Shown piece after piece: positions 3,333-30,530 of a stretch of DNA of 64,000 bases. The stretch is from Eledone cirrhosa (Eukaryota). The translations under genes and the position numbers were made by a program. The notes beneath the pieces were generated by a model. It ran no database searches, had not been told where the DNA came from, and saw only the letters and a program-made list of their open reading frames with translations. The stretch covers positions 187,612,001 through 187,676,000 of the forward strand of contig OZ024741.1 in assembly GCA_964016885.1 (NCBI GenBank). The letters are read 5' to 3'. Numbering within the stretch: the first letter of the stretch is position 1; every line of letters begins with the position of its first letter.

Positions 3333-3335
<3 letters not shown>

Positions 3336-3613: not shown

Positions 3614-3644
3614 ATATATATATATATATATTATATATAGCTAT

Positions 3645-3684
<40 letters not shown>

Positions 3685-4837: not shown

Positions 4838-6399
4838 TATACCATGTGTCAACCTTACTGAGGCATACTTTGACATACAGAGCTAAATAGTAAGTGCTGC
4901 AGTTTGACTTTTTACACATACTGCACTCTCTTCACTGACCCCTTAATTTCTGTACACCTGCTGTTTTTTTGTATATTATCATTGATTAGTCAGACAAAGA
5001 GGTAAGGAAGAAGGGAAAGAAGAAAGTACCATCAAACTAGAAACCTATCCCAAATGGGTGACAGATTAAGTCTACTGCAACAGGATTTGAACTCAGAATG
5101 CAAGGAGCTGGAACAAATACTGCAAGCATCTAATTCAATGTCATAATGATTCTGACAATCCATTTCACTGTTACTCTATCTATTGACTCTGGGAAGATGG
5201 AAAGCAAAGTTGAAAATAGCAGGATTTCAACTAAGATCACATGGATCCAAGATAAACACAACAAAGTATTTTGGTTAATATTCTAACAACTCTGTTAATA
5301 TTCTATCACTAACTGTTGTTGTTGTTGTGTAACCAACCCCATGTCAGATTTGATGAAGCAGTTGTGTGATGCCGAGGTGTTAACCAAGCAGCTTAAGCAT
5401 GGCAAAGAGATCTGTTGTTCCAGATCTGTTCATCTGTAGACACTGGATTAGAGAGCGGTGATAGGCAAGGTGGTCTTGGTTATAATGCAATAGTTGCTGT
5501 TCCAGATACAACTGATTTTTACATAAAAGTAATTATACAGTCAGAGACCATTGTAGTAGTGATAGGAGATAGAGAATGATGAGAGGGCACACCTCAAGGG
5601 AAGGTAAAGTGTATGGTGAAGTGTGTGAGGCTTTGTTTATAAGGTGGATGACCTCTCATAGTCTTATGGATAAATCAAGAATGTGTATATGCATCTGTAT
5701 GATTGCTTATGTACACATCTGTTTGTGAATGCAGCATGACTGAATGGTTTAGAGGTTCAGTTTACACTCATTAGGTTCCAGGTTCAATCCCACTGTGAAG
5801 CATCTTGGGCAAGTGCCATTTACCATAGCCTCAGGTCATTCCATACCATGTGAGAGAAAATTGGTAGATGAAAACTGTTTGGAAGCACATCAGATGAACT
5901 GTACCCGTAATTCAAAGGCCCAGCTGTGTCACACACTGTCATGCTGAGTATTCCTGAGAATTACAGTAAAGATACACACATCTGTAGAATGCTCAGCCAC
6001 TTACATGTTAATTTCCTGATCTGGCTGTGCCATTGATTGAACAACAGGAACAATCATCATTGAGACTGACAGAGGTTCATCAATTCAGTTTGATGTGTAT
6101 GTTGATGGATTGTGTGTGTGTGATGTATGGACCCTGATATGAATAGGTTTATCAGTGCAGAAGAAAGGTCACCATTATCATCATCACTACCACCACCATT
6201 GTGTGCATTTGAAACACTGAATAACTAGCAATAGGTTTTAGTGTATTATTGAACCAAGTTCAAACCCTATCAACAGTAGAGTAGGTAACCAATGAAATAA
6301 GGTCTTGAGCTCATTTTTGAGAGCAGAAACTCCATATTAGAACTGACTCAGTCCATATCAGAACTGACCGGTCCAACTCATGTCACTAAGGAAGTTGAT

Positions 6400-6427
6400 G
6401 GTGATGATGATGATGATGGTGATGACA

Positions 6428-6480
<53 letters not shown>

Positions 6481-6582
6481 ATGATGACGACGATGATGAT
6501 GATAACATTAGGATAACAACAATTATAACAACAATTTCAATGTCTCTCCTTGACCTTCATCTGAAACTCTCCAAAATTTAAT

Positions 6583-6653
<71 letters not shown>

Positions 6654-8029
6654 ATCCACAAACACTTGATTCAGTCAAACCCACTTACTTTTACTCCATT
6701 CCACACACTTGACATAGTCCCACTCACACTCAAACCACTATCACTAGTGCCATCATCATAACTATTTTCATCATTAACACATGCCATCATCACCATTACT
6801 TATTAACATCATCATCACTGTTGTTATCACTATCACCACCACCACCACCACCACCACCACCACCACCACTACCACAATCAGCATTATCATCATCATCATC
6901 ATCATCATTACCACTGTTGTTATCACTATCATTATCAACATCACCATCGCTATCACCACCATCATCATCAACACTACCACCACCATCATCATTATCAACA
7001 TCATTACCAACATCACCACCACCACTATCATCATCATCATCATCATCATCATCACCAATATTAGTCATCAACATTTTCATTATGATCACCAATGTCATTA
7101 GCATCAGCATCAGCATCACTTTTACCATCATTACTCTTATATCACCATCATCATCATCATCATCACCATCACCACCATCAGCCGCCGCCAGCACCACCAC
7201 CACCACCGCTACCACCACCACCACCGCTGCCACCACCACCAAAGTATGGTAACTGCAACACCACCACCACCACTGCTGCCACCACCACCACTACCACCAC
7301 CACCACCGCTGCCACCACCACCAAAGTATGGTAACTGCAACACCACCACCACCACCACCACTGCTGCCACCACCACCACTACCACCACCACCACCGCTGC
7401 CACCACCACCAAAGTATGGTAACTGCAACACCACCACCACCACCACCACTGCTGCCACCACCACCACTACCACCACCACCACTGCTGCCACCACCACCAA
7501 AGTATGGTAACTGCAACACCACCACCACCACCACCACTGCTGCCACCACCACCACTACCACCACCACCACCGCTGCCACCACCACCAAAGTATGGTAACT
7601 GCAACACCACCACCACCACTGCTGCCTACTTGCCAGATTCATAACCCTTTAAACACCCTTACACACACACACACACATATAAACAATCACAACACTCACA
7701 CACACACACTCAACAATACACACATACAGACAGGAAGGAAGATGGAAATAGGTGGAGGGGGAAGGGAAGATAGCAACAATAAGAGAGGAGAGCAGAAGAA
7801 TAGCAGGAGGGAGGGCAAAGAGGTGTCATTGGGAGGGGCTGCACGGCGGGGGGGGGGGCGACATAGGGAGAGATGTAGAGGTGGTGGGGGTGGCGATAGG
7901 GTGGAAGAGGAGGGAGGAAGGGAGAGAGTGATGAAGAGGCTGGGATCATGGATGCTGGGCAGATGTAAACACATGCCTGGCTGACACGTCACTTTGTTTA
8001 CAACAATTTCAGCCAGTCAGTCCAGAAAT

Positions 8030-8080
<51 letters not shown>

Positions 8081-9480
8081 GACAAAGACAGACATACACA
8101 TATAGACAGACACATACTAAAATGCAAACACACACATACACACAGAGGCTCACATACAGTCACAGACAGAGAGGCTCACATACAGTCATAGACACATACA
8201 CATACACATACACAGAGGCTCACATACAGACACAGACAGAGAGGCTCACATACAGTCATAGACACATACACATACAGAGAGGCTCACATACAGACACAGA
8301 CACATACACATACACATACACAGAGGCTCACATACAGATACATACAGGTGGAGATGAGGTTAGGATGTAACCCATTCCAAAACTTAGATTACAACACTGT
8401 ACTGTATCACGACTACCACCACCACTACCACCACTACCACCACTGTTCATCAAACCACATTGCACCATACAGTATACTGCCTGCTGAAGACCTTCAGCAA
8501 CATACCGCAAGCCCTAGTGCAATTCACAGACACAAACTGTACATCACTACCATTTGCACACCCAACACCACCACCATCACCGACACCGTCACCATCACCG
8601 TCACTATTAACATTACCATCACCATCACCATTAACATCATCAGCTTCACCATTACTATCACCATCACCATCGCCATCACCATCAACCATCGCCATCACCA
8701 TCGCCATCACCATCACCATCGCCATCACCATCAACCATCACCATCACCATCGCCATCACCATCAACCATCACCATCGCCATCAACCATCACCATCACCAT
8801 CGCCATCGCCATCGCCATCACCATCAACCATCGCCATCGCCATCACCATCACCATCGCCATCACCATCAACCATCGCCATCAACCATCGCCATCACCATC
8901 ACCATCACCATCGCCATCACCATCAACCATCGCCATCAACCATCGCCATCAACCATCACCATCACCATCACCATCACCATTGCCATCATCATCAACATCA
9001 TCGTCATCGTCATCATCAGAAAATAGAAAAAGTGTCAAGCCAGCAGACGGACTGACAGATATATTGAGATGTAACAAAAGGGAGTTCTCCACCAACACCA
9101 CTACCAATATCATCCCTAACCCTCATCATCACCATTATCATCATCAAAGTTGTCACCAAGACTATACACATCATCATCATCATCATCATCATCATCACCA
9201 CCACTGTTACTACCATCCTACCATCCTACCACCATGATCATTAATCTAGGAGACATTCAGAGAATTGTTGGGACAAACATACAAGCAGACTGATAGACAG
9301 ATAGACTGAGGGATGGATACAGTAAACAGAAGTGGGGTGGGGTGGGGGGTCGGGGGTCGCAAAAACACCACCACCACCACCACCACCACCACCACCCTAC
9401 ACACATATCTGCTCCTCTTTCTCTTTATTTATCTTTCTACCAGCACCACTACTACCATTATCACCATCACCCTACCATCC
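6400..9480. repeat. Low-complexity (GAT)/(CAC)/(CAT)/(CA)n region
   Basis: Trinucleotide arrays producing poly-T/H/P/I ORF artefacts. Confidence 0.9.
7190..7625. repeat. ~88-bp composite tandem repeat of (CAC)n with an AAAGTATGGTAACTGCAA spacer (5 spacers)
   Basis: Spacer recurs at about 7241, 7323, 7411, 7499 and 7587. Confidence 0.9.
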
Positions 9481-9799
9481 TCCAGAGCCTACCACAAACA
9501 AAAGTTACCATCTCTAATACTATCTCAATAAGATGCCACAGACAGACAGATATTACAGAAAAATAAGAGACAATTAGAGAGACAAAAGGAGAGAAGTGAG
9601 AGAGAGGAAGAGTAAAAGGAGAGAAAGCTGACAAAAGAAATTGGATGAGAGAGTGAGGAGAGGACTGAGGAAACACAAAGCAAAAAAATGTCAAAACATA
9701 TTATTCCTGGCCTCTGGGACTATCCACACACACAAACACACATTCATATATATATATATCTTCCACTAGGATAGGAGTAAATCAGAAAAAAGCAATATT

Positions 9800-10545
9800 T
9801 GAAGAATATGGTCAGCTGGAATTTGTAGATGGCATAGTGTTGCTTAACTCAACAGGGGAAGGGGTGATCCCCGACTTGAGCTTGATGAGTTTGATGCCGG
9901 GTGCTTCATGGCTGGAATGAAAATCGGTGCTGCAAAAACTCAGACACACATCTTCTCAAGGAAGCATGTGCAGTGTACTCTATACGTGAATGGATTTCCA
10001 CTGAAGCAGGTGGAGAAGTATCTCGGAGTCATGTTCACGAGTAATGGAAGGCAGGAGGCTGAACTGAGTGCAAGAATAGCAGAAGCTGGTGAGGTAATAC
10101 ATCAGCTTCAGCATTCGGTAGGGAGTTAGGTGTAAGCACCAAACTCGCTATCTTCAATTCAGTATTTGTGCCAACCCTTACCTATGATCATGAATATTGG
10201 GTAATGACAGAAAAAATATGATTGCGAATACAAGTGGTCAAAATGAGGTTCCTCCGAAGTGTCTTTGGAGTAATGTTACTTGATAGAGTGCGTAGCTCAC
10301 AGACCACAAAGTTACTCCAGGTAGAGCTGCTACTACTTCTCCGAATTGAGGGATCACAACTCTGATACTATGGGCGTGTGGTTAGAATGTCTCAGATCCT
10401 AAACAAGATGGTTGGATAAAATCCATGAGCTCAGCTGGTCTCACTTAGGGATCCAGCCAGACCAGTTGGAAATGGTTACTTCTGACAGGACTCGCTGGAA
10501 GGAGTGTGTGAGGACTCTTCCCCCATGATCCTATCAGGAGGAGGA
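9800..10545 (+). mobile_element. Degraded RTE-clade LINE (RT C-terminal part and 3' end)
   Basis: Frameshifted translation GMKIGAAKTQ...LKQVEKYLGV...TKLAIFNSVFVPTLTYDHEYW...MRFLRSV...YYGRVVRM, typical of non-LTR RTE ORF2. Confidence 0.8.
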
Positions 10546-11957
10546 GTAGGATAGGAGAAGGAGGAGGAGGAAGGGGAGAAGGAGGAAGAGATTTTCTTAG
10601 GCAATAGAATAGAATGCTTTACGATATTCCTTTCCGCTCACTGAGTTCGAAACCCATCAAAGTCAACTTTGCCTCTCATCCTCTGGCGGTTGATAGAAAA
10701 GTACCTGACCAATACTGGGAGTTGATTTATCCTCTATATCCCTTTCCCACTCTTTCTCCTTCCCTGGAAAAAATTGGCTGTGTTCAAACCTGTAGAGGGA
10801 ATGAGCTTTGCCAGGTTTTAAATACCTAAGACACACCATATGTCACTGTGGTACCCCTACAACTACAGATATTGCAGCTCCATACAAATATTGTTTCATA
10901 AAAGGGTGGACAACAATTTTGCAATGCAACTACATGGTCTGGGTTTCAATTCCACTGTACAGCACCTGAGATGCAGAGGCGTAACTAGGGCATGGTAAGC
11001 ATGACATGTGCCATGGCATCACATGAAGGGGGGGTTCCACTTTGACTAGGAGCACGTTCTATTAAAGTCAAATGAGCCTCGTTGGAGAGTGAAAAAAGTA
11101 ACTCCTTCAGATGTATGATCTATCTCTGGTTATCATGGGTGAGAACTCTATGGTGCCTAGATCATTAAACCATTTATATAAATTATTAGGCCCAAAGGTA
11201 AAAATACAGTGCTGGGCAAGGGCGCAATTTCACTGCTTGCCATAGGTGCTATTTTCCTTAGTTGTGCCTGTCTTCTACTATAGCTTCAGCAAGGGTTCAA
11301 CAGTTCAAATTGGGAGAAAGTGATGAGTAATTGAGTACATTTTATCATGCCATAAGCATGGACTAAATTGTTTTGTCTCTACATTTCACTTTGTCTACAG
11401 TGAGAACACATACAGCAAAGGATCCTATTCAACCCTCAAACAATTCCATCAGTCTATCAGGAATCTATTTATTATAAACCTTGGAAAAATGAAAGTTGAC
11501 AAACACTTAATAATGACTACATTAGATATAACTTATAACTCAAAATTCTTGATTATTTTCAAAAAAGAAATATGGTAACAAAATTCTTGATTATTTTCAA
11601 AAAAGAAATATGGTAACAAATGGGTTAATGACTCAATTAGTTAGCAGCCTTAACTGGAGTTGACTTGGTGTATTTTGTGATAATATAAGATCTGTAAATG
11701 TCAATGTTAATGTCAATTCAAATGACTACACACCAGTCCATATTTTTTGGTCTATATCAATTATAGTTGTTATTATTGATATTATTATTATTGTTATTAA
11801 TATTTTTAGTAATCAGCAGTGGATTGACAAAATCATTGAAATGGACGACTCAGTTTCAATGAGTGTTCCAGTTGTTCAATCCATGGCAAAAAATCCAGCT
11901 TACTCATGAAATTAACATACAAGTGGCTGAACATTCCACAGAAACATGTACCCTTAA

Positions 11958-12388
11958 CCCATTTAACCCTTTAGCATTCACATTACTATATATCTACGAT
12001 TGTATTTTCGCAGTAAAGGTTTTACCTCACATAATTATTCACATTGAATCTATGAGATTTTGATGATTTTATTATTTACTTTGAAAACAAGACCTTAACA
12101 TCAGTATGAGTGGCTAGTTATGGCCGGTTTTAACAAAAAGAGGTGAGAGAATTCTGGCTGGATATGGCCTGTTTAAATGCTAAAGGGTTAAACCGGACAT
12201 ATCCGGCCAGAATTCTCTCACTGCTTTCTGTTCAAACCGGCTGTAACCAACTAATGTTAAAGTATTGTTCTTAAAATAAATGATATCAAAATCTCATGAA
12301 TTTGATATTATGTGAGATAATTATGTGAGCTAATCCTTTTACCATGAAAATATAATAGTAAATATAGAGTAATGCAAATACTAAAGGG
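11958..12388. mobile_element. Nested piggyBac-type (TTAA) MITEs inside a SINE; another copy at 15335-15544
   Basis: TTAA-CCCTTTAGCATT...AATGCTAAAGGG-TTAA (11967-12187) sits in the TTAA near the left end of an oppositely oriented copy that ends AAAGGG-TTAA at 12388-12392. Confidence 0.7.
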
Positions 12389-13524
12389 TTAATGTAATTC
12401 TCAAGAATATTCAGTATGAGACTGTATGACAAGGCTGGTTCTTTAAATTATAGGTGCAATGCATCAAAATCTTCCAAACAGTTTCTCTCTACCCTATTTC
12501 ACTGAAAAGATGTGGGTCAACCCAAGGCTATTATGGTAAATGACACTTGCACACAGTGGGATCAAACCCAGGGTCACATGATTTGAAGCAAACTTCATAA
12601 ACATTGAGCCATGCTGTGTTCATGACAAAATCGTTAGGGTCAAATAAAACACTTTGCTATATTGTTCAAGTTCTTTACATTTTGATTTCAAATCCAACCA
12701 AGGTGAACTTTGCCATTCATCCTTTTGGAGTTAATAAAGTAGAAGTCGAAAGCAATGGATTCGAGGAATCGTTGGAGTATTGAACAAGATGCCTTCCCAT
12801 ATCTGTTTCAAAACTATGTTCTGAGTTCAAATTCTATCTCCTTCCTATTACCTGTTTCCTCATGGCAGGAAATGGGTTATTTTGGGATGTGCGTAATTAT
12901 TGTGATGCCAGGCTTACACATTGATGATAACATCCCTGTTACATTAATAAAGCAAGCAGACTCTGCATAAAGCAGGATAAACAATAGGACAAAAAAAAAA
13001 AAGGTTCTGAAGTCAATAGAATACAATACATACTAGTAATACACTGGAGGTCATGTTATAAATGTGAAATTTAATACTTAAAACAATATAAATTTGTTTT
13101 AGTGGAAGAAAAATAAAATACTAATATTGAAAATACTACAAAGATAAAAAATATACATGACTGTAAATTATTCTATCGACACCTGGAAGGTAAATTTAGG
13201 CCAAAGTCAACAATAGTGTGATGAGAACCTAAATAAACAAAGCTGTACACTGTAAAGATATTTTAGTCTCATACACAAACACATGGTTTGAATTTATCTC
13301 AACAGGCCTGATACACTTTTTTCTTTCTCACATTGGTGATTATCATATGTAATTTCATTTTAAATACACATACACATCATCATCATCCTTTTTGTCATTA
13401 CTCAATGCCAATAGCACCTGCCATCAAAAACCAACATCACAAATAAAACCACCAATACTATCACCATCATCATGATCATCATCACCACCACCTACACTAC
13501 CATGATCATCACCTTCATTATCAT

Positions 13525-14170
13525 TTTAAATCCATTATTTTTCCATGCTTGCATAGATTGGAGTCTTCTCCAGCACAATATCTCACCACTTTTTACTATC
13601 ATTTGTCATCTCCTTCGTGGGATTTAGTCTTTTGAGATGGGCTTTCACTACTTCTCATGCTTTAGTTGGTCTTCTACAGTTGCCTTTCACATGGATTAAC
13701 TAGCACTTCTTTACCAAACTTTCGTCATCTACACACATCACATTTCTGTACAAATCCAGTCGTCTCTTTTCCACACTATATCTGATTCTTCTCATGCTAG
13801 GCTTTACTTTCAACTCCTTTGGGCAACCCTCTTTCATGCACACAGACATTACAAATTCAAAAGAGTATTTTTGCTTCATTTCTTCCCATCTTTTCCACAT
13901 CCTCTGCAATCGATGCCCATGTCTCACTACCACGTTATATTTTACTTCAGATACAAACATCATAAAATGTCCCCATCACATGAAGAGAGAATCACTTTGT
14001 TACCAGCAGATGTAAAAGTTCCATGAACTTTTTCCACCCTGTTCTTTCTCTGACTACTATGCTTTCGGAACACCTTTCTCTACTGCTGATCTTGTTATCA
14101 AAGCAACAGAACCTATCAACTACTTCAAAAGACCCTTTTGAATATTTGAAAGAATTTATTTTAGAGTGAT
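13525..14170 (-). mobile_element. Degraded RTE LINE 3' portion
   Basis: Minus-strand remnants FEVVDRFC, GWKKFMELL, GSETW, RRLDLYRNVM..DDESLVKKC, ending in the CAAGCATGGAAAA..(TGA)n tail shared with the SINEs. Confidence 0.7.
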
Positions 14171-14302
14171 TTACTGTTAATTACTCCTGTGTACTAGCTA
14201 TATACAAATTCTTTCTTTTCTGGCAGTCTGCCTGAGAACACATTGAGATAGGAATGAAAAAGAAAAGGAGAGAAAGAGAGGAGCAGTGGTCTGACAGAGA
14301 AG

Positions 14303-14346
<44 letters not shown>

Positions 14347-14649
14347 ACACTCATATATACATATTTACATATGGAGAGAGAGAGAGAAACAGATAAAGAG
14401 AGGAGATGATGTAGAGAGAAGGCATCTTTAGTTCTTTAAGTAGTTTGAAATGTTGATTCCATTGATGCGGTGAAAAACTAGCATCATATCCTAGCTGTAT
14501 TGTATCTCTCATCTGTTTAATGTAATGCTACAACAAAATTTGTACATCTAAACATTGTCATTTTATGTGACCCTATATAAATAAACTATACAATATTATC
14601 TTTCATAAAAGCCTGTCATTTATATCTACTTAAACAATTGTATTTTCTG

Positions 14650-15030
14650 TATGGTTTTGGAAGAATTGGGTAAAATTGTAAAGGATTATCATGAGATTGG
14701 ACTATAACTGCAATGTCAAATCTGTCCTAATGTATGACTCAGAATGCTAATGAGTGGTAAAAAGAAACATGAATAAGACCAATGCTTTCCACAATAGGTG
14801 CCTGGGGAAACTCTGCTGAATCTTCTGACCTAACAAAGAATCAAATGAAGAGCTGTACCACAAAACTGGTTGCAGCAATATGGTCCTTGAAATAAGACAC
14901 CAGCAGCTCAAGTGGCTAGGCCATACTCTCAGAATGGACCAAGACAGAATACCAAAGGTAGATTAAAATGGGCACTTTGTGGAAAGCAAAAGCCTGTGTG
15001 ACCAAAGAAGACCTTAGCCTAAAACAATTG
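14650..15030 (+). mobile_element. Degraded RTE LINE 3' portion
   Basis: AFHNRCLGKL...SNEELY...IRHQQLKWLGHTLRMDQDRIPK remnant. Confidence 0.7.
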
Positions 15031-15735
15031 AGAGTAAGCTGAGAGAAATACATTCTAGTTAGGAATGTAAGCCTCATTTCCCAAACAGGAAGAAGAGTAT
15101 TAATAATTATTTCTAATTTAGGCATAAGGCCAGCAATTTAGGGAGAAGGGGAAGTCAATTACATCAACTCCTGTACATAACTGGTACTTTATTTTATTGA
15201 CCCCATAAGGATGAAAAGACAAAGTTGGCCTTGGTGGGATTTGAACTCAGAATATAGGGATTTGTAACTAAATACCACAAAACATTTTGTTCAATGCTCT
15301 ACTGATATTACTAATCCACTGCCCTAGAACAGTATAATCCCTTTAGCATTTAAACAATCCATATCTAGTCAGAATATTCTCACCTCTTTCTATTCAAACC
15401 GACTGTAACTGGCCGCTCATAGGTATTGTTCTCAAAATAAATAATATCAAAATTTCATAGATTTGATATTATGTGAGGTAAAGCATTTACTGTGAAAATA
15501 CAATAGTAAATATCATATAGAGTAATGTAAATGCTAAAGGGTTAATAATAATGATACTAATCCTCAAAATAGATGTCTTTTTAGTTTCCTTTATTTATCT
15601 ACTTTCTATGCAGGTTCACATTGGAGAAACCTTTAATTCATGTGAGCCATTCTTGGGCTTCTTATTGAAAGGCAGCATTGAACTTATAAACTAATGACTA
15701 TTAAAAAGAGTCTGAAACATTTGGTTTTTAGTAGG

Positions 15736-16881
15736 TTTATTTCGCATTTTAATCAAATTTATAATAAAAAAAAAAATGAAGAAAAAATAATATAATGTCT
15801 AAATAAATATCACACAATTTTCCAAAAGGAAGATAGGAATAACAAAATTTCTTGAAACTCTTTAATGTTTTGTTTTTTTGGTTTGTTTTTAGGTTTTGTG
15901 TTTTTTTTGGTTTATTTTTGTCGTGTTTTTTTTCCAGAAAACAATTTTGTTTTGTTCATGAAAATATCTCATTCAATTATGTATGAATGCATTTACAATC
16001 CACTCCATTTTTCTAAGGCAAGATGGTGAACATTAGTGATTGAGTACTGGAGTAGATTATATTAGATAACTCATAGAGATGTTCTCAATTCAAAAGTGCT
16101 GTTATGGTTGAAGAATTAGAACACTAGTAAGTTATAGTATGTGTAGGGGTCAATGGTCCAAATGTTGACCTCACCCTTGCCATGTCCAATTTGTAGAGTT
16201 GATCATCTGCTAAAACACTTGATTGATTAGCTTTGTGCAACAGGAATGCTTTAATAGAGCTGGCTGGCATTGCCAAAAATAGCAGTACTGATAACTACTA
16301 TGTTTCTTTAAACTCCACCAGAACAGAATCACAACTGAAGTTATGGAATCAATTTAAACAAGGACTGCTTTTCTCAGCCTTTAGAAGTTTTCCTGTTTCC
16401 AAAGGACGGAATTATACCATGCCATACATGGTGCTGCTGTCATCTAAATAGAGACTGGCACCTCTGCCATTCTGCATGGGGCATGTAGCAAAAGCTTTCT
16501 TTGTCTTGAGCCACCTTTAGAAAGTCAAAGAACTCGACTGACACACGCAGCTGGAGACTGACACAGAGAATCCTTTGGCAATTCCACGCTACATACGATT
16601 GTGGGTTTTAGCCATGGGTTCTTCAATTCTTGAACACTTCTGCGGCGTTTTTACCAAAGTAAAACTTATTTTCAGAAACACAGCCAAATGTTAGTATTCA
16701 AACTATTTTTGAAAGACTTCAGGTCATTTGGTATTTCCGTATTCTTCACCAATATTATATCTATGATACAAGTTTTAACTTTGGTTTCTCTCCTTCTTTA
16801 AATCCCTTTAATTTCCAATTCATTTTATATTTAGAAAAAAGGTGCCACAGGCTGTCAATGAATCAGGTAAATTAGACAGCA
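15736..16881 (-). other. Candidate 3' UTR of the BH3-only gene (if the exon is terminal)
   Basis: About 1.1 kb of unique, transposon-free sequence right after the read-through stop, with minus-strand AATAAA at 15911-15916 and 15736-15741. Unusual in a window otherwise saturated with repeats. Confidence 0.35.
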
Positions 16882-16989
16882 TTAATTGTTATTTCCAATT
16901 GCCAAAATCAGAGTAACAGTGGCCGAAAGTCTGCAGATGAGACTGAAATTGACCAAGTCTGCAGAGACATGCATATTCCATCTACTTAC

Positions 16990-17201
16990 TTGGTGGTGTG
17001 AGTGGTTGCGATTCTGGTAATACTCATCACTAATTCTTCGCAGTTCCTGACCAATTGCACGGATGTGTTCGTTCCGACGAAGAGGCACTTCAGGTAATGA
17101 GTGTGCCCTGTCCCGTGGTACTGGCACCAGATCTGGCAGTGGGTCTTGGCGTGGTGAGATGCTAGAATCTTCACCTTCAGAGTATAGCCGGCGTGCTACA
17201 C
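16990..17201 (-). CDS. Coding exon of a BH3-only (BAD-like) pro-apoptotic protein; partial gene
   Basis: Acceptor ttttgtgtttctctaacAG|GT at 17201 (phase 1) and donor CAA|GTAAGT at 16990 (phase 0). The 70 complete codons read (G)VARRLYSEG...RDRAHSLPEVPLRRNEHIRAIGQELRRISDEYYQNRNHSHHQ. BH3 LxxxxD motif is close to BAD YGRELRRMSDEF and BIM IAQELRRIGDEF, with an RxRxxSxP site 23 aa upstream as in BAD. Reading through the donor gives a hydrophobic tail ending at a stop at 16882. Confidence 0.8.
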
Positions 17202-17319
17202 CTGTTAGAGAAACACAAAAAGAAAAACAATTAAAGAAAAACAATAAACTGTATTTATTTTACAAAACAACAACAAATCAATTTTTAATAAAAACATTGT
17301 ATATACCAATTTCTAATAA

Positions 17320-17779
17320 CAAAAACATTGTATATATCTCACTCATAAATAATCTCATGGTCACTTATACATTGTATATATCTCACTGTATATATCTTTG
17401 TATATATATCCAACAGACCAGTGTCTGTCCTTAGGGCATCAACATTCTGTTGGAGACGCAGGACATGGCAGCGATAATGAGGGACAAAGACCGCTGGAGA
17501 GAACTCGTCCATGGATCTCGGGAATTTTACCCGCCTTAGAAATAGATATATACATTATATACATTGTATATATCTCACTGTATATAATATACATTGTATA
17601 TATTTCACTGTATATATCTTTGTATATATATACATTATATATACGTTGTATATATCTTTGTATATATATACATTGTATATATCGCACTGTATATATCTTT
17701 GTATATATATACATTGAATATATCTCACTGTTTATATCTTTATATATATACATTGTATATATCTCACTGTATATATCTT

Positions 17780-17826
<47 letters not shown>

Positions 17827-18115
17827 TGTATATATCTCACTGTATATAATATACATTGTATATATTTCACTGTATATATCTTTGTATATATATACATTAT
17901 ATATATACTGTATATATTTTTATATATATACGTTGTATATATCTCACTGTATATATCTTTGTATATATATACATTGTATATATTGCACTGTATATATCTT
18001 TGTATATATATACATTGAATATATCTCACTGTTTATATCTTTATATATATACATTGTATATATCTCACTGTATATATATCTTTGTATATATACATTGTAT
18101 ATATCTCACTCATAC
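17320..18115. repeat. TA-rich composite minisatellite (ACATTGTATATATCTCACTGTATATATCTTTGTATAT)
   Basis: About 20 variable units, with a higher-order repeat of about 240-280 bp. Confidence 0.9.
17410..17540 (+). mobile_element. RTE 3'-end fragment inserted into a TA-rich minisatellite
   Basis: Translates as DMAAIMRDKDRWRELV (RTE C-terminal DRxxWR-type motif) and interrupts the 17320-18115 array. Confidence 0.5.
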
Positions 18116-18754
18116 ATAATCTCACTCATGGTAACATATACCTTAACTCTTTTATTACAATATTTATAATGAAATACACTGTATTGGAATTAATTAATGA
18201 AGAATTTGGAAATATTTACTAAAATAATTAATATTTGTAATAACAACAGATTCCTATGTCAAATTGAGTAGTTTTCTTTCATACAACCAGAATCATTTTT
18301 TAAGGTAGGTTGGTATCAAAAGAGTTAAAAGAATAGTAAGGACTCTTTAGTGCTCATTGTACAAGAGTACTTCTCTAGTGTGGGGGCATGCTAAAATCCA
18401 TCTAGTACAAGGGTCAACAACCAAATGATAAATAACAACATACGATACAGAGGGTCCTTTAACCATGCTAAAGATTTGATAACCTCTCTAGTGCTGGTGC
18501 ATGATAAACACACTTAACTATAGAAACCATACCAAACATGAATCAGATTTATATACATATATATGTGAGGTTGGTGTTAGGAAGGGCATCCAGCTGTAGA
18601 AATCAAGCCAGAATCAGTTCCCGTCCCACCCTTGCAAGCAGGGAAAAAGCGGACGTAAAATGAAATGAAATGATGAAATGAAAATATATAGTTGTAGGGT
18701 TGTTAATAAATGTGATATGATGCAACACAGAATCCTTGTTCTTTATAATGATAA

Positions 18755-18795
<41 letters not shown>

Positions 18796-18964
18796 GGTGT
18801 GTGTGTTTTTCTGTGTGTGCGTGTGTGAATATATATTATACATTCCATTTGTATATGTATATGTACACACATAAACATGCACACACATACAGGTATACTT
18901 TATATCTGTACAACATATAGGGAATGTCATTAAGTATTTATACTGTCTCTCTCTCTCTCTCTCC

Positions 18965-19006
<42 letters not shown>

Positions 19007-19477
19007 GCTTACAAATTAGTAACCTAGTTTAAAAAATCACCATTAAGATACCTATCATCAACAGCATTATTATCACTGTTAATTTTAAAATAGACCTCAC
19101 CATCACCACTGCCACCAGTATATGAAAGAAGAAAATACTGACTGACTGAGGTACAAAAAAAACGAGAGTTTAAAATGTAAGAGTGCGAAAAAGACAGATA
19201 GATTGACAGAGAAATAAATACACATGCACTCTGACGGTGAGACAAGCAGACAGAAAGGAATGAGAGGGAATAATAGTCAGTGGTTATTAGTAATGGAGAG
19301 GTAGAGATTGGAAAGGGTAGAGTGAAAGGTGCGAGAGAGAGAGAGAGAGAAAGACGGAGGAGAGAGGGGGAACGATAGAGAAGTAAAATGAAAGGATAAT
19401 CAGAGATATGGTAAAAGAAAGGTAAAGAAAACGAGAAAGATATATACATACACACACACATGTACATATATATATAC

Positions 19478-19665
19478 GGTGGATTGGAAGTATCGGTAGA
19501 GAGTCGGACGCCATGCTTTCCAGCATAGTTACGTCCCTTTACGATCTGAGTTCAAATCCCGCAGAGGTTGACTTTGCTTTTCATCCTTACGGGGTCGATA
19601 AAATAAAGTACCAGTAATGCACTGGTTATTGCTGGCCTTGTGCCTAACGTAGAAACAATTATATA
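19478..19665 (+). mobile_element. tRNA-derived SINE with Nin/Deu-like domain (many other copies, e.g. 4135-4327, 15105-15325, 33100-33210, 33420-33602, 26810-27240, 49890-49970)
   Basis: B box GAGTTCAAATCC followed by GCTTTTCATCCTTACGGGGTCGATAAAATAAAGTACCAG (Nin-type core) and a GGCCTTGTGCC...AGAAACAATTAT tail. Confidence 0.7.
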
Positions 19666-19790
19666 TATATATATATAATTATTCAGAATAATAATTGTTT
19701 CTATTTTTGGCACAAGGCCAGCAATTATTTCAGTGTATAACTGGTTTATTCAGAATAATAATAAATAAAGACATTCACAAAATCAAAATA

Positions 19791-19856
19791 TGTTTTATTA
19801 TATATATTTCGAAGGTACCGTGCTGTTTTTTCAGTACGTCCTCGTCAGATAAAATA
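19791..19856 (-). ncRNA. Minimal type I hammerhead ribozyme
   Basis: TATTTTAT-CTGACGA-GGACGTACTG..CAGCACGGTACCTTC-GAAA-TATATA-TA|ATAAAACA. Same stem I as 34517; bulged stem II. Confidence 0.72.
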
Positions 19857-19959
19857 CATGGTTATATATATATATATATATATGCAAGGTGTAAATTTAT
19901 ATAGATACAGACACACACACATATACATATACATACATGTATATAAAGGGTAGGTGTAA

Positions 19960-20063
<104 letters not shown>

Positions 20064-20268
20064 CTAGCAGACGACATTGTATCACATAACTCAATGTAAA
20101 AGAGCAGCCGATATGTCGCGTGAGCCAAAATAAAGAGCAGACGACATATCGCGTGACTAACCAAGAAAACGCTTGTCTATCACTGCTGTTTATTGTGATA
20201 TATGCTATACATGCGGTGTCATAACAAGTATCACATCATGTTTATTATATACTTATCTACGATATTTG

Positions 20269-20325
<57 letters not shown>

Positions 20326-20691
20326 TATACACATACATATATATATATATATGTATATGTATGTGTGTGCATATATACAAAGCCGAGAGCGGGCCGGTGA
20401 GCTAGTTGACATGGACCAATGATTTTGAGGAACCCTGCTTCCCTTAAATTCTTTTTTCTTGCTACGTATATGTATATGTGCATGCCAGTAACCCATACTT
20501 ATATTATATTAATTTAACACTGGATGGCAGTTTGAAATGGAGGTCTACACGATATATCTGGACTGGGCCTATTACTAATGTTCTATGTTTCATATATGTT
20601 CCTATTACGAGCTTTGCACAGACCTCCGTCTATATGCAAGCATAAAATCAGTTTGTGAAACAGTCTGCACCCACATCCGTACAGCGACATG

Positions 20692-20722
<31 letters not shown>

Positions 20723-21525
20723 TTTCATATACGCACACAAAGGTAAAGTAGATAGCGTCGTTTATCAAACAATCAGAAATACATACACGTTTATCTGTGT
20801 GACACATTCACACAGATAAACACACACAAACACACGTTATATAGACAGATACACACAAAAGCACAGCCTCCGAAACAGACACACGCACACATTTATAATC
20901 ATACACACACACAAACACAAACACAAACACAAACACACGCACGCATACATACATGAATAAACTCATATATACGTAGATACTTTATAAATTGACATGCAGA
21001 AGCAGAAATATTCATCAGACCTGGACATACACAAATAAATACACATATGCACACACATGCCAATTCAGACATATACAATCACACGCATAAACAAACGTAC
21101 GTGTAAAGAAAGAGGGGGGGGGGGGGTGAGAGAGAAAGAGAGGTGTAAAAGAGAGAGAGGGAGAGAGAGAGAGATAGCAAGAGGTAGATATAATACGAGA
21201 GAGAGAGAGAGAGAGAGAGAGACTTTGGTCTCAGAAGATGCTTGGCGTGGATGAAGGGAGATAATACAGATAGCTTCTTTCTCACACACGCAAAGTACAG
21301 TCACATTAGGTAAATGGGTGCAAAGAATGTCAAGAGGTCAGCTACGTGGTGATTTCTGTTCGGTAACTGCAGCGGGGACTTCAGAGGTTTAAGGAAAGAA
21401 AAAGTTATATATATTTAAATACATTGCCTTTCCCTTCCTTTTCCATTATCATAACCACAAAAGACATTTGTGTTTTTCATTAAACTATTTGGTAATTAAA
21501 TTATATATATATATATATATATATA

Positions 21526-21640
21526 GGAACGAGTAGGACCCCGACGGCTGAGCTCAAGCCGTTTCGACGGCTAATTCCTAAGTATTGAGTACTTTTGGTA
21601 CGTTATGGTCCACCTGGTTCCTTACCACATTTCCTCCGTT
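21526..21640. mobile_element. Penelope-like fragment with hammerhead 3' half; rearranged relative at 3908-4059
   Basis: Minus strand GAAA-CGGCT-TGAGCTC-AGCCG-TC at 21543-21565. Its two modules occur in opposite relative orientation in the 3908-4059 copy. Both copies sit inside (TA)n. Confidence 0.55.
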
Positions 21641-21911
21641 ATATATATATATATATACACACACATACGTTTTAACAATAACGTTACTACGGCTTGATTT
21701 TCTCAACACACACACATATATATATAAATGTCCTTTACCATAGTACTGTATTTGCACAATGTGATAAACGTTTTGTAATAATTTAATGACGGTATAAACA
21801 TTTTTTTTTCACTGTATGAGGTTACTATTGTCCCTCAAATACATATTCCATTTACTTAAACAAATATTTTTTACGATATATTTTTTCTTCTTCCGCGGGA
21901 CACACACAGGT

Positions 21912-22008
<97 letters not shown>

Positions 22009-22182
22009 ATAAACTAGATATGCAGTATAACTACTAGACATATTAATATATATATATATATATTTATCTTACTGGTAATAGGATAGTAATTAATGACTAT
22101 CTCTCACTATTTAGGGTTTGTGTATATATAATATATTACCATCAAAGGTTTTATTGCATACATAACCATAAATAGTACCCTT

Positions 22183-22379
<197 letters not shown>

Positions 22380-22483
22380 GAGTGGGAGAGAGAGTTAGTT
22401 CCACAACAAATTAGCAAACCTGTGGAAGTAACTCTTACCGAACTCGTCCTTTGGACTGAGTGCTCCATCCCGGTTTTTTACCG

Positions 22484-22521
<38 letters not shown>

Positions 22522-24893
22522 GTAAAATATATATATATATATATATATCAATATTTCTAGTAGTTATACTGCATATCTAGTTTACCCTATTTGTTTTGCT
22601 ATTTATAACACGTCGAGCGAACATCATGACGCCTGCCTCGTTGATTCACGGTTTAATTGTGATGCTATAACAGCAGTTGCGATTATTATCTGTGAAGTCT
22701 GCACCGGTTGTTTAACCTTTTTTTTTTTTTTCGATTTTTGATGAATTACTCTGCCCAGAGTCAGTGGCGTGCAGGTGTGTGTGTGGGGGGGGGGGGGGGT
22801 ACGTTGGCCCCGGGCATCCTTTGGATGGAAGCATCATTTGGGGGAAAGAACTTAATAAATTTGATTGATTTTATATTAAAATCGAATAAAGCGTTTATTT
22901 CATGTTTCATCTGTGTTTATATATTCAAAAGGTTTTCCTTTCTGATAATATTTCTCAGTATATTAGGCCTTATACTTGAGTCTTTGGGGGCATACAATTA
23001 AGATTTTCCCCGGGTATCACCAGAGCTCTGCACTCTTCTGCTCATGGTTTCAAATAATTTTGAAGATATTCAAAAATTGAAAGGATTTATTAACTTTCTC
23101 GATATCAAGTTGGAACATAATTTAACACGGGTTACGGAAGGCTTTTAGATAAATATAAGCACTTTGAAACAAGCACCATTGTATTGTAGAACCTGGAGCG
23201 GTTTGGTATCAAGAGTGTTAATGTATTAAATATTTAATTATTACTGAAATCTATTAATTATTCATTTTCATTAGTAAATAAGCAGATGATTAACAGACTG
23301 GTTTCAAAAGACCCCACAAAGTCAGCTACTGGAGTTGATTCATCATCGTTTCTCAGTATGGAAAAATTAATACCGGGCTTCCTTCATTTCCTTCAGTTTT
23401 AAATTATTATAGCTCCTAGCAGTGAATAATAATAATTGTTTCTAATTTAAGCGCAAGAGCAGCAATTGGGGTGGGGAGGAAGTTGATTACATTGACCCAG
23501 TACTTGACCGGTGCTTTATTTTATGGACATCCGGAAGGATGAAAGACGAAATTGACCTTGAGAGGATTTAGAATCAAATACAAAGACCATAAATTGTGGG
23601 CTTGGTATGTCTGGGAGAGGGAGTTGATTACATTAATGTCAATATTTTATTGGCAACCCTTTTATCGACCTCGAAAGGATGAAAAATTTAGGCGGGATTT
23701 GAACTAAATACTGCAAAGTATTTAGCATATTGCTTGCATTGAGGAGGCTCATAGCTTACTATTTGAAATGAGCAGATATTGTCAGACGGGGAGATCTCCC
23801 ACCCACTTTGGGGTGGGTGAGGGAGATCTTCTCTTGTGAAAATAGGTATAGTTTTCATTATGCAAAATCTTCCCATTCTGCCTCATTTCTCTCCGTTTTG
23901 GGGCACTTTTTGTCATGATACTCCCCGTTTGGATTTTTAGAGGTTGGCAGGTCTGTATTGTTGCAGTAGTGATAGAAAAGATATACTGAAGATACAGCAA
24001 ATTTCTGATCCAGTGATTATAGTATGGTGGTTAGTGAGTTTTTTGCCTATTAAATCTGTGTAGGTAGCAACTGCAGTGACCCAGATTCGTTGATCTTCGT
24101 CTTTGTATAGGACTACAACTGAAGTACTTTCTGGTCTTCAAGAGGAAGACTAACCACTGTGATGTTTTAAGCTTTCCAACATCAGACCTACCAACCTCTA
24201 AAAACCCAAACAGGAGTACCATGAAAAAAGGTGCCCCAAAATGGGGAGAAATTAGGCAAAATGGGAAGATTTTAGATAATGAAAGCTATACACATTTTCA
24301 CAAGAGAAGACATCTTTCATCCACCCCAATAAGGGTGGAAGACGGGGTGAGTTGACAAGTCTTCAACATTCTAGAGGTCAGCAACCAATCAATGCTAGTG
24401 AATATTCTGGCAATGAAGAAAAATCATCCTAATCTTTATGTAACAGCAATGCTTCCAAGATATGAAAGCAGCGTTGTAATGTAGGTCATACAATGATAAA
24501 CTGTCGAACAATTGCTATTCTTTTTTATTTTTATAAATTAGTCAGGAGGAAAGGGTCAGTGTCTATGACCATAGCAGGTCATTTCCTCACAGATTGGTGA
24601 GATTAATGAGGTTCATATTCAGTTTGAACATATATTATAAAGTCTTGTGGTGTAAGCAAATTTGGTAAATCAGTCGCGGGTACAAACAGCTACCTCGCAA
24701 TTGGTTCTCTGATATCACTCACCGTGACTCATACTTTCATGATATTTGTTTGGGTTTTTTTTTACTATTTGCCGTGACAGCAGACATTTTTTTTTTTTTT
24801 TCACTTATGCCACCTGTCTGACAATGACCTTTGCTGTTTCTCCGTCTTAATTAAAATGAAGGCAGGCTTCGTTAGGGTGAAATCTCCTGTCTG

Positions 24894-24930
<37 letters not shown>

Positions 24931-24936
<6 letters not shown>

Positions 24937-25130
24937 TTATTAAAATAACAGATTAAAGTTTAAGCAAAGAATCGCTGCTTTCACCCTTAACGGGATCTTC
25001 TGAAGCGATTATTTGCATAAACTTTAATCTGTTATGTTAATAAATATTTGCTCTACGGTTCTTATATATTTGATATATATTTATCCTTATCGAGCCCTCT
25101 TTGGATTTTAGTCTTCAAATTTATTATTAT

Positions 25131-25134
<4 letters not shown>
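24931..25134. mobile_element. Fold-back repeat family (other copies 1546-1687 and 3699-3890)
   Basis: Shared AAAGTTTAAGCAAAGAATCGCTGCTTTCACCC and its reverse complement, with a different turn-around point in each copy; all next to microsatellites. Confidence 0.7.
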
Positions 25135-25205
<71 letters not shown>

Positions 25206-28166
25206 TTTTCCCGGGTTAAATCAGGGGTAACCACAGTAAGGTACTCCTCGATATATAGTATAGTATATACAATATTTAATATAGAAATGGCTTCGACATG
25301 ACGAACTGTTTCATTCGAGTGAAATCATCAGGAAAGCCCTGTGGCAGCCATTTCTATATTACATATATATATATTCTTATTTGCCTATTCCAGACTATAA
25401 AGACGATATTGCAAACGAGATAGTGTTTTAGTCGATTGACTTCTTATCTTTAGTTCTTCTGTTTGTTTTAGCCCTCACTGCAACGGCCATGCAGGATAAC
25501 CAAGTTTAGAGTTCAATATTTTATGTTGACTGAGTATGTCCAATATATTTGCTTGGCTTTCATTTGTTTTTGGTAGATCAACAAGTAAGTCGTGACCGCT
25601 CCGTTTGTTGGTTGTAGTGACCTCGCGTTTAGTATGTCTACCTCTTCAGTTCCAATTTGATTTTTTTAAGCGGGTTTCTTTTTAGCTTTTATTTGATCTG
25701 AAGCGGATGATAGGTAAATCTTCTTGAGAAGAAAATAACACTTTATCACAGGTAACATTCCTAAGGTTAACTGATAAATATTCCTCCCCCTGACAGATAG
25801 GTGGACTGAAGTGATAAATCTGGTCCTAGATAAGACACTACTCTATTACATCTAATATTCCCCAAATGATATGATATCTATATTGTACCTGTACTACTCC
25901 AGAGATACTGTGATGAGAAATATATTTCGTCCTGGATAAGACCGCTATGTAGATGAATAAGGTCTACTGCCTCCAGAGACAGAATTATGTCTAGAGCCTA
26001 GAGAACTGTGATAAGCTTTCAATGGATATGATGCCAGTCTATTCCTAAATGATCTTGTATGTATTCATCCAACACCTAAGTGTGCAGAAGTAATGTAGAG
26101 TACAGTACACCTTCCTAGAGGGATTAACGAGAGATGGATCCCCGTCTGGATAAAACGCCAGTTTATCAGTGATAAAATTATCCAGATGATCTGATACACA
26201 TTTCTACCGACAACAGATGGTGAACTTAGAATAAATGTAGAATAAATGCACTGGATATGTCACCAGGCTACCACACAAAACATTCCTCGTTATTCTTATT
26301 TCTATTCATCCATCTTATCTAGTTCTTAATTCAAATCAATTCATCTCCTTATTCACTCGTCAGAGGTAGTTCTGAGTTCAGATCCCTTTCTCTTGTTTTC
26401 TATCCACCCATCAGATGCTGGTGGATAGTTTTGCGTTCAGATTAATTCATTTGTTTCCCAATCACCCGCCATATATAGTCCTGTGTTCAACTCCGGCTTT
26501 TATTGACACTACCTTTCATCTTTGCTGCCAGATTTGGTAAAATAAATAGTACCAATCATACACTTAAGTTCGATTTCACTACAAACCCACTAAATGTGTG
26601 GTCTTGAGAAATTAATATTAGTAATTAGCAATGGAATGAAAGGGAACGATAGTCAACGGTGGCTGGATTCGATCTCAGACACCACAAAACATTTTGTCCA
26701 CCAACCCACCACAATTATGACTCTCGATCTATCAATTCTATCCACTCAAATACGATTTTGTCTGCCAATCTACCACTTTTGCTTTCCAGCAAATCTTACT
26801 AATTTTTAGCAGTGGCACAAGACCTCAACTACTAAGGTAAAGGTTGACTCGTTCACGTAAGTCCCCCCACACTCAACTGGTATTTCATTTTATTTACCTC
26901 AGAAGAGTAAATGGCAGTTGACCTCGGCGGGATGTGAACTCAGAAAGTAATTGGAAAAAACAGGTAAAATAAAGCATCTTATCCTGCTCTCTACTGATTG
27001 TGCTAATCTAGATAACTTTATTAATGTGATTTCTAACATAGATACAAATTTAAAAAATGGAGGTAGGGATTAGTTAATTATATCGACACAAGTACAAGAC
27101 TAGTGCCTTATTTTACCGACCCTGAAAGGATGAAAAGCAAGGTTGACAATGGCAGAATTTCAATTCAGAACACGAAGATCCAGTAAAACAAAAACTGCAA
27201 GACATTTGCCCCGTTCTATATCGATTATTCTAATCCACATAACATTGATAAAGATTTATTTCTTTTTTATGGATTTTAAAAATATAATTGAAAATCAGTA
27301 AAAACTCAGAAAACTATTAATATAATACTTGAAAATGTAATTTTTATTTTATTTCATTTCAAATATCATTTTCACACAATTCAAATGGCATTTCCTTTTC
27401 AGCAATTTTATTAAATTTTAATATATATTTTTTATATTTTATATTTTTCAATTTATTTTTCACATATTTTTAATTTCTGTATATATATTTTTTCTTGTTT
27501 TTTTTTTCCTTTTTTCTCCAGTATTTTATAAGATTGTTTTTATTTATTCGTTAGATTTCAAAAATTTGTCGACAGAATACACACACACCACATGCAGATT
27601 CACCCATACAAACATTCACACAGACACATAAAAATGGCGTCTTATGTATGAATCAAAGATAGATGACAATGTATTCCAGTCGTGACCACTGCATTATTTT
27701 TCATATCCCGAGGTCTACATTATCTAATATGTCCTTCCAATTTTTAAAGCGATATTGTGTGCTTCTAAGAGATATTCGACGGTTATTTTCTGAAAACAAA
27801 ATACGTTTACGACTGGAATAACCCTTATCATAGTTCTATTTAGACAAAGTCTGACCTGTGGCTAAACAGTCGCAACAAGAACACACACACAAAAGATGTA
27901 TTGTTAAGACGGCTATAAATAAATATTGTACATCTGGATTTTCTCTCCTAGGCTTACCCCCCTCTCTCTCTCTGTGTCTGTGTGTAAGACTCAAGTAGAT
28001 TTTTTATGCAAAAAGTAATGCACACATAGAGAAAGAAAGAGAGAAATGTATATATATGGAGAGATAGATAGATAGATAGATATAAATAAGTCTGTCTTAT
28101 GCATGCGCGCCCGCATAGAAGGCAGTTCTGCTATGGAAATACAGACAACTTTATCACAATATATAA

Positions 28167-28208
<42 letters not shown>

Positions 28209-28303
28209 CGCTTTGATAGTTCTTTACTTCGTAATACCACTTGCAAGGATATATGTGTGTATGCGCGGGTATTCAAGTCGTCCATGCATACACTGGATGG
28301 GAA

Positions 28304-29205
<902 letters not shown>

Positions 29206-30458
29206 TACACACGTACTAGACTGCATAGACTCAGACAGAGTAGCGATGTAGTAGGAAGAGAAGAAGTCACTTTAGTTGAAGGTCATCGGTGATGCCTGCA
29301 GTTAACACTACTGCTACTAGCTAACGTGTAAGGAGTTTCCTTACGAGGTCGCTCAAGGCGCTAGGCATGGCACAGCTAAATCTCCCCCCAAACCACACCT
29401 TAAATAATGAAGGTACTGAATAATTTATTCTTGGAAAAGTATTTTTTTTAAATATATAGAATTAATAAGACGTATTAGCAACCACGGTTTGAATGTCTAT
29501 TATCATAAATTTGCTCGATCAGAGCTGACTTATGGGGTTGGAGAGTGTGGGTCTCTGAACAACAATTATGTAGTGATAACCTCTCTCCTTTCTTACTACA
29601 TCCATTCCTGTCTATTTTGTCTTGCCTAACCGACGACGTGCTGACGTTCTTCAAACCCCGCCCATCGATGTTTTCCAATTCAAAGCAGGAAAACCACCAT
29701 TACCACTGCCACCACCACCATTACTACTACTACTACTACTACTACTACTACAACAACAACAACAATCGTAACAATGCTAACAGCAACAATATTGACAGCA
29801 GTAACAACATGACCAAAGACGGCAACACCATATACAGGATATTGCGGAAATCGTTGGCGCTAACAAGTGCGGAATTGACCGATGGGGAGAAGGGCAGGTA
29901 ACTCTCGTAGCTAACTAACCTGCATTGGTTTTTGACTGCAATGCAGTGTGGAGTGGTGAGTGGAGGGGCAGAATTTGGAACATTAGGTGCAACCATGCCA
30001 ACAGTATATTATATATTCTTCTGTTCTATAAACTGGTTTCATACTTTGGATGGCAGTCATGCTGGAGCACAGCGTCCAGGAGTCTATAGACGATCATATC
30101 GATCGTAGTACTTGTTATTTCAGTCAAATTTTATTGATCTCTAATTGTCGGACCACTGTGTTACGTGACTTAGAGACATTAAAACACTAATGAACACACA
30201 CACACACACACGCCTAACGAGGGCATAGTCTGAGGCAAGGTCTGCGCAGATGATTAAAACCGGAACCACATGGTTGTGTGGCGAACTTCATACTTGGAGC
30301 CATGCCAGCATAGTTCACACAGATACTCACACATATACATAGATATGTGTGTGTAGATACTTGTAGATATACGCACACAAAGCAGAAGCTACTTATTGTG
30401 ATTGTTTCGGGGTGTAGCCTTTTAGATAACAATAAACGACTAATAACATGATCCATGA

Positions 30459-30530
<72 letters not shown>

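Follow-up and report, generated by a model that had tools for sequence, protein, structure and literature searches.

A BH3-only gene of the octopus Eledone cirrhosa that combines control motifs of BAD and BIM and is probably descended from their common ancestor

Introduction

The kinases PKA, Akt and RSK have been assigned site by site on the BH3-only protein BAD, and motifs of the DSG type act as degrons. As a rule, the BH3 of a BH3-only protein is carried on a single exon, the second to last (PMC7022251). Excerpts of PMC2871139 give PKA, Akt, RSK and 14-3-3 as the regulators of BAD and, together with those of PMC12811263, a dynein light chain motif as a hallmark of BIM and BMF; this motif has TQT at its core (PMC3078936). 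Most BH3-only proteins are described as phylogenetically unrelated in the excerpted text of PMC10107002, and BAD and BIM are called singletons in that of PMC3411107. The literature covered here, which took in few subscription papers, contains no paper joining BIM, BAD, BMF and PUMA as ohnologues and no account of a composite anatomy of TQT, phospho-switch and BH3.

For bivalves or molluscs, the relevant portions of PMC3634015, PMC5550854 and PMC8917759 state that no BH3-only protein was found; the last two are mollusc papers reporting this absence, and one of them discusses its meaning. The legend to Fig. 5 of Suraweera et al. 2022 (PMC8998228) presents putative BH3-only proteins obtained with BIM, BAD and BMF as seeds and lists Octopus bimaculoides, oysters, scallop, Lottia, Lingula, Capitella, echinoderms and amphioxus. 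That set covers the BH3 region only, and the available text of the paper, which says that the lamprey lacks BH3-only proteins, does not contain the words 'dynein', 'phosphoryl' or '14-3-3'. BH3-only candidates in octopus and molluscs were thus already listed in 2022, and the kind of gene is not new; those candidates, known from the legend alone, probably belong to the same family as the gene described here.

A preliminary description of a 64,000-nucleotide stretch of the Eledone cirrhosa genome (the window) proposed a spliceable exon encoding a BAD-like BH3-only protein with the full BAD phospho-switch, and read it as a lophotrochozoan BAD orthologue. Here we place this exon in its complete gene and compare the family to which it belongs with BAD, BIM, BMF and PUMA. 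On sequence grounds, the gene is best read as a pro-orthologue of BIM and BAD and not as an orthologue of BAD.

Results

The exon is part of a three-exon gene that spans the window

The BH3-encoding exon is a genuine spliced exon of the octopus gene. It runs on the minus strand from 17201 to 16990, between an AG acceptor with a polypyrimidine tract (phase 1) and a GTAAGT donor (phase 0), and is translated without a stop into the peptide originally given for it. One contig of run X1 crosses the exon, and its loose ends match the two neighbouring exons: compared by eye, 26/26 comparable letters agree with the end of exon 1 and 30/30 with the start of exon 3. The splicing predicted at 17201 and 16990 is thereby borne out at both junctions, on evidence from a single run of one study whose library type is not on record; run X5 gave no contig for the exon. 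The exon shows seven listed differences in a second organism, five of them synonymous. In the six frames of the window, RxRxxSxP with a BH3 core after it is seen a single time; 40 simulated sequences of 64 kb do not contain this pattern. The gene is laid out as follows.

G000:C2:187694191-187695742, minus strand: coding exon 1, outside the window; 1552 nt, low-complexity, ending in a phase-1 donor
17202..64000, minus strand: part of intron 1 (65.0 kb in all), exon 1 having been found via octopod relatives
16990..17201, minus strand: coding exon 2 of 3 (second to last); 212 nt, phase 1 in and phase 0 out, with the phospho-site block and the BH3
16882..16989, minus strand: read-through of the exon 2 donor; 35-residue hydrophobic tail to a stop, a possible alternative C-terminus
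1..16989, minus strand: part of intron 2 (29.3 kb in all), exon 3 being located beyond the window
G000:C2:187599548-187599697, minus strand: coding exon 3, outside the window; SFP motif, amphipathic segment and stop

Exon 1 lies 65.0 kb upstream and exon 3 29.3 kb downstream of exon 2. Since both are beyond the ends of the window, the whole window lies inside one gene. The product, encoded in three exons, has 637 residues, is largely disordered (FoldIndex-type score below 0 in 75% of windows along the protein) and has one BH3 and no BH1 or BH2. As in the rule for BH3-only proteins, the BH3 sits on one exon, the second to last. Exon 1 supplies a DSSY degron-like motif, an SxPIxI motif and the dynein light chain motif GTQT.

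The NWGR and GGW signatures of a Bcl-2 fold are absent from the 637-residue protein, and its orthologues have no Bcl-2 Pfam match; a multi-BH Bcl-2 member, which would have BH1 and BH2, is ruled out on these grounds. Exon 2 matches a protein of Octopus bimaculoides at 94% and one of Argonauta at 85%, which are named 'mef2A-like' and 'hypothetical', respectively. The RefSeq name of the O. bimaculoides orthologue looks like a low-complexity artefact, and we reject the notion that the 637-residue protein is a piece of a MEF2-like factor. In loose searches, three protein queries led to a single locus in the genome, plus one low-complexity match. The X2 model of O. bimaculoides ends in a 15-residue exon; this was not found in the window or 120 kb of flanks, and one exact pattern for it had no match genome-wide.

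The read-through tail (16989-16882, minus strand) reaches a 19-residue hydropathy of up to 1.84. It is covered by an X1 contig and is present in an O. bimaculoides RefSeq isoform; three of the seven changes listed for it in the second organism alter residues. This form could be a membrane-anchored isoform or unspliced RNA. Elsewhere in the window, 61782-63545 on the plus strand holds an open frame of 587 codons that consists of tandem 30-nt repeats, with a unit like HDFVNTVVLC, and is probably a minisatellite.

BAD-type serines precede and enter the BH3

The motifs of exon 2 are given below.

17179..17193, minus strand: RRLYS, the first serine and positional counterpart of the upstream BAD site; without Arg at -5 in octopods
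17128..17142, minus strand: PLPDL, conserved in the invertebrate family, with LPD invariant in 15/15 aligned sequences; also in a fish PUMA
17092..17115, minus strand: RDRAHSLP, matching RxRxxSxP; a predicted Akt/RSK site and 14-3-3 docking site
17020..17067, minus strand: BH3 with BIM-like flanks and a BAD-type serine (17031-17029) before the invariant Asp

Exon 2 has the hydrophobic positions and the Leu-x-x-x-small-Asp pattern of a BH3, and our coordinates for RDRAHSLP (17115-17092) and the BH3 (17067-17020) agree with those first reported. The BAD-like order claimed for the serines holds as well: all three are matched in order and are conserved in the family. The switch cannot quite be called full, as had been done, since RxRxxSxP and the BH3 serine are intact and RRLYS lacks the Arg at -5 in octopods, which leaves it slightly degenerate here. 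Across the 38 family matches described below, RxRxx[ST]xP is found in 38/38, Ser before the BH3 Asp in 37/38 and a complete upstream RxRxxS in 30/38; these motifs lay inside the query and were hence selected for, and several of the matches are isoforms or close kin, so that the counts are not independent. The last two serines are 23 residues apart in Eledone, as claimed, and 18-25 residues apart across the 38 matches, against 19 in 17/18 of the vertebrate BADs retrieved and 18 in the remaining one.

The three matched serines favour a one-to-one BAD orthologue. The BAD/BIM split would then predate the bilaterians, the invertebrates would have kept BAD, and vertebrate BAD would have lost TQT. 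We consider this unlikely in view of the TQT motif and the BH3, which are compared with those of BIM below.

The family extends from molluscs to chelicerates and deuterostomes

Searched against 5660 candidates, a profile of four exon 2 sequences matched 38 proteins (E up to 10), from gastropods, bivalves, Lingula, Owenia, Ptychodera, Asterias, Apostichopus and amphioxus, nearly all of them unnamed. A wider profile search added Capitella, a bryozoan, a spider, a scorpion, crinoids and the lamprey. The family is thus present in molluscs, brachiopods, annelids, a bryozoan, chelicerates, echinoderms, a hemichordate, amphioxus and the lamprey, and the lophotrochozoan scope first given to it is too narrow. 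The predicted conservation is seen: the BAD-type serines are kept in the family, and the similarity to BAD outside the BH3 is real.

Family members share a fixed order of motifs, namely a DSGY-like motif, SxPIxI, TQT, RxRxxS, LPD, RxRxxSxP and BH3, often followed by SFP and an amphipathic segment. TQT, which lay outside the query, is found in 24/26 relatives with at least 180 upstream residues, compared with 2% in shuffles. In the octopus protein GTQT is at residue 482, and position -3 is Ile, not Lys or Arg. Within the BH3, ELRRI-x-DE is invariant in 15/15 aligned sequences. In the lamprey protein P0100, SxPIxI, TQT and RERSLS occur together with a degenerate LPD.

An unrelated disordered protein might have acquired such an arrangement independently, or the BH3 might serve a non-apoptotic role in a scaffold protein. 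The similarity is confined to short motifs, the function is read from sequence, and BH3 motifs are described as convergent in the relevant text of PMC10107002. Against this, six to eight motifs keep a fixed order across protostomes and deuterostomes, ELRRI-x-DE is invariant, and the family profile reaches vertebrate BIM and BAD at E-values of 1e-6 to 1e-4 among 1.84 billion proteins, so that we regard independent assembly as very unlikely.

P0100 (lamprey), P0133 (spider) and P0152 (scorpion) are unannotated family members, and BH3-only proteins of chelicerates were not described in the literature found. P0085 and P0103 (Mya), P0081 (Dreissena) and P0116 (Lingula) are additional, more divergent members, which suggest separate duplications within the bivalve and Lingula lineages. 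In Lingula and in Mya the family is represented more than once; the octopus genome has one locus in loose searches.

BIM and BAD match different blocks of the family profile

Searches with a single sequence were weak, yielding one sub-threshold match in Pfam and a chance match in the PDB. Most of 32 relatives scanned against Pfam match both Bclx_interact (BIM) and Bcl-2_BAD weakly, and the protein of the hemichordate Ptychodera passes both cut-offs (BIM 45.4 vs 25, BAD 29.7 vs 28.2). The octopod proteins are above neither cut-off and have no match to Bcl-2_BAD (PF10514), the family against which the preliminary description had suggested they be checked. The PUMA family of Pfam matches weakly over the exon (E 0.017).

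Among solved peptides, BAD scores just over BIM against the four-sequence profile (18.8 vs 17.3 bits), a point in favour of a BAD orthologue, and BIM comes first against a 15-sequence profile (31.0 vs 23.6 bits). The latter profile contained no known vertebrate row. Run against the 1.84 billion proteins, it gave 179 matches with E up to 0.001, the best 150 of which include vertebrate BIM, BAD and one PUMA. We scanned 69 of the 125 new proteins among these best 150. On the basis of Pfam score and BH3 signature, we assigned 18 of them to BAD and 23 to BIM; protein names, looked up for 20, confirm two BADs, three BIMs and one PUMA. No BMF above the Pfam cut-off was among the 69. Selection by the profile favours vertebrate rows that have retained the motifs, and within each vertebrate group the rows are related to one another.

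With the TQT block, 22/23 BIMs and 0/18 BADs exceed the 99th percentile of shuffled sequences. For the block from TQT to the BH3, with the BH3 excluded, the picture is reversed, with 15/18 BADs and 2/23 BIMs above this level (median in BAD 8.6 bits against a shuffled 99th percentile of 2.9). Median scores of the BH3 block are 28.0 bits in BIM and 21.1 in BAD. The full RxRxxSxP is present in 18/18 BADs and 2/23 BIMs, and four of the 23 BIMs, including those of Arapaima and a mormyrid, have RxRxx[ST] exactly 19 residues before the BH3 Gly, which is the spacing of BAD. The single PUMA row, from a killifish, keeps PLPDL and reaches 16.3 bits in the pre-BH3 block (shuffled maximum 4.7, from BIM/BAD rows).

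The pre-BH3 match to BAD again speaks for a BAD orthologue, as do Bcl-2_BAD matches that span profile positions ~60-127 in several relatives. However, the flanks of TQT are BIM-like (TQTPSPLCQ in amphioxus, TQTPSPPCQ in BIM), the family BH3 is nearer to that of BIM, fish BIMs keep the BAD-type site, and no second, BIM-like gene was found in loose searches of the octopus genome. The opposite assignment would make the gene a BIM/BMF orthologue that retained ancestral phospho-sites, with BAD arising by a separate local duplication or unrelated outside the BH3. TQT in nearly all BIMs and a degron-like motif in 10/23 of them fit such an origin, and so do the top Atlas leads (0.88-0.90), which are BMF, BIM and PUMA clusters and one unnamed arthropod cluster. 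It does not fit the match of BAD to the pre-BH3 block without the BH3, nor the BH3 serine that 18/18 BADs share with the family, and we judge it quite unlikely.

A BIM-family search of the genome missed the octopus gene and gave two weak matches. A weak BH3-like sequence, QELRRLGHTF (E 3.3), lies in an open frame at L020 (G000:C2:160198051-160198110, plus strand); it could be a chance match or a second BH3-only exon.

Tree and synteny

A tree built on 76 columns of 36 chosen rows places the octopods with five further mollusc rows (89/91), outside the BAD clade. BIM and BAD fall into one group each, above a backbone that the 76 columns leave open. Constraining BIM, BAD, PUMA and the lamprey protein together was not rejected (p-AU 0.445), a result that does not demonstrate a clade.

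We take BCL2L11, BAD and BBC3 to lie within ~1 Mb of MERTK, PLCB3 and EHD2, respectively. With these three positions and that of BMF from the literature, the positions of BIM, BAD, BMF and PUMA adjoin the quadrants of one paralogon. Its markers, one per quadrant, are MERTK (human chr2, 111.9 Mb), PLCB3 (chr11, 64.3 Mb), PLCB2 (chr15, 40.3 Mb) and EHD2 (chr19, 47.7 Mb), as given for paralogon 3 in the relevant part of PMC8040251, and BMF is placed at 15q14/15q15.1 in that of PMC12811263. BCL2L11, BMF, BBC3 and BAD are absent from the rows of the ohnologue table found in the supplement of PMC8040251.

In the octopus genome, one of five marker families is on the contig of the gene. This is BUB1, which we take to be a neighbour of BIM and BMF and which would count towards a BIM/BMF orthologue; it lies 83 Mb from the gene, on a contig that makes up 14% of the genome. 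EHD and TRMT112 are on other contigs, and SRP14 and PPP1R14 were sought in the octopus genome and not found.

A modelled complex with a Bcl-xL-like partner

The octopus genome has three Bcl-2-domain (multi-BH) genes, L017 (C2, 134.04 Mb), L018 (C10) and L019 (C11), of which L017 is closest to Bcl-xL. A modelled complex of exon residues 36-70 with L017 scores 0.81, compared with 0.02 for the best of three controls; the mark used is reached by 51/78 solved and 2/108 mismatched pairs. The runs share at least 92% of contacts, and the pLDDT of the partner is at least 73. In the model, the BH3 serine touches the BH1 Gly-Arg of the partner. Because complexes of this kind have already been solved, the score shows likeness and not binding.

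Discussion

We have described a conserved BH3-only exon with BAD-type serines; its motifs, its splicing and its similarity to BAD outside the BH3 all uphold this part of the preliminary description. The assignment to BAD specifically is not supported, given a protein of 637 residues, a TQT motif that separates the retrieved BIMs from the BADs, a BH3 that scores higher with BIM than with BAD, and a position in the tree outside the BAD clade.

Likeness to BAD lies in the BH3 serine, in RxRxxSxP some 20 residues upstream of it and in a further basic serine site, all in the same order. Unlike BAD, the octopus protein is long, carries TQT and degron-like motifs found in 0/18 BADs, has a spacing of 23 and not 19, has BH3 flanks nearer to those of BIM and is without a PF10514 match. 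With BIM (BCL2L11, PF08945) it shares TQT upstream of the BH3, a [DS]SG[YV]-type motif farther upstream, a QELRRI core and an amphipathic C-terminal segment, and its best Pfam and PDB matches are to BIM. It differs from BIM in having Ser for Gly in the BH3 (Ser in 0/23 BIMs), in lacking a Bim_N domain and in two basic serine sites that most BIMs do not have. The likeness to BMF consists of the dynein light chain motif that PMC12811263 mentions for BMF, weak Pfam matches and the Atlas leads, and that to PUMA of the weak Pfam match over the exon and the PLPDL of the killifish protein; the base for these two comparisons is one PUMA row and no BMF row among the 69 scanned matches.

One chain thus holds control motifs that vertebrates divide between BAD and BIM, and it is likely a copy of their common ancestor. 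A point against shared origin is that motifs as short as TQT and RxRxxS arise by convergence. On balance, we think it probable that BIM and BAD share an ancestor from which the octopus gene, encoding a BH3-only protein, also descends. Once the vertebrate genomes had been duplicated, the three serines would have been retained in BAD, and TQT together with the degron-like motif in BIM. PUMA and BMF likely represent two more copies; the evidence for these is weaker than for BIM and BAD. The wider proposal seems to us evenly balanced: BIM, BAD, BMF and PUMA would be four genome-duplication copies of one bilaterian BH3-only ancestor that joined LC8 tethering, a degron and an Akt/14-3-3/PKA switch, and that persists, intact and without annotation, in octopus, other molluscs, chelicerates, echinoderms, amphioxus and the lamprey.

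By analogy with its vertebrate counterparts, the octopus protein likely works as a BH3-only death trigger. When unphosphorylated, the BH3 would fold into the groove of a pro-survival Bcl-xL-like protein and free Bax/Bak. Survival kinases (Akt/RSK) would phosphorylate RDRAHS, upon which 14-3-3 would hold the protein off Bcl-xL, and a PKA-type phosphate on the BH3 serine would block binding to the groove. The dynein light chain LC8, bound to TQT, would dimerise or tether the protein, and the N-terminal DSG-type motif, degenerate in octopods (DSSY), may set its turnover. We infer these kinase, 14-3-3, LC8, turnover and apoptosis roles from the better-known proteins. Molluscs reportedly lack APAF-1 (in the relevant text of PMC11463336), so the route after mitochondrial permeabilisation may differ.

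The octopus gene fills the reported gap of BH3-only proteins in molluscs, with transcript support, and is a candidate for the upstream trigger of mollusc apoptosis. If our reading is right, one ancestor had both sets of controls, and BIM and BAD would be duplicates that divided its short linear motifs. The growth-factor/14-3-3 switch would then date to the base of the bilaterians, and the fish BIMs and the lamprey protein would be natural intermediates for testing this descent.
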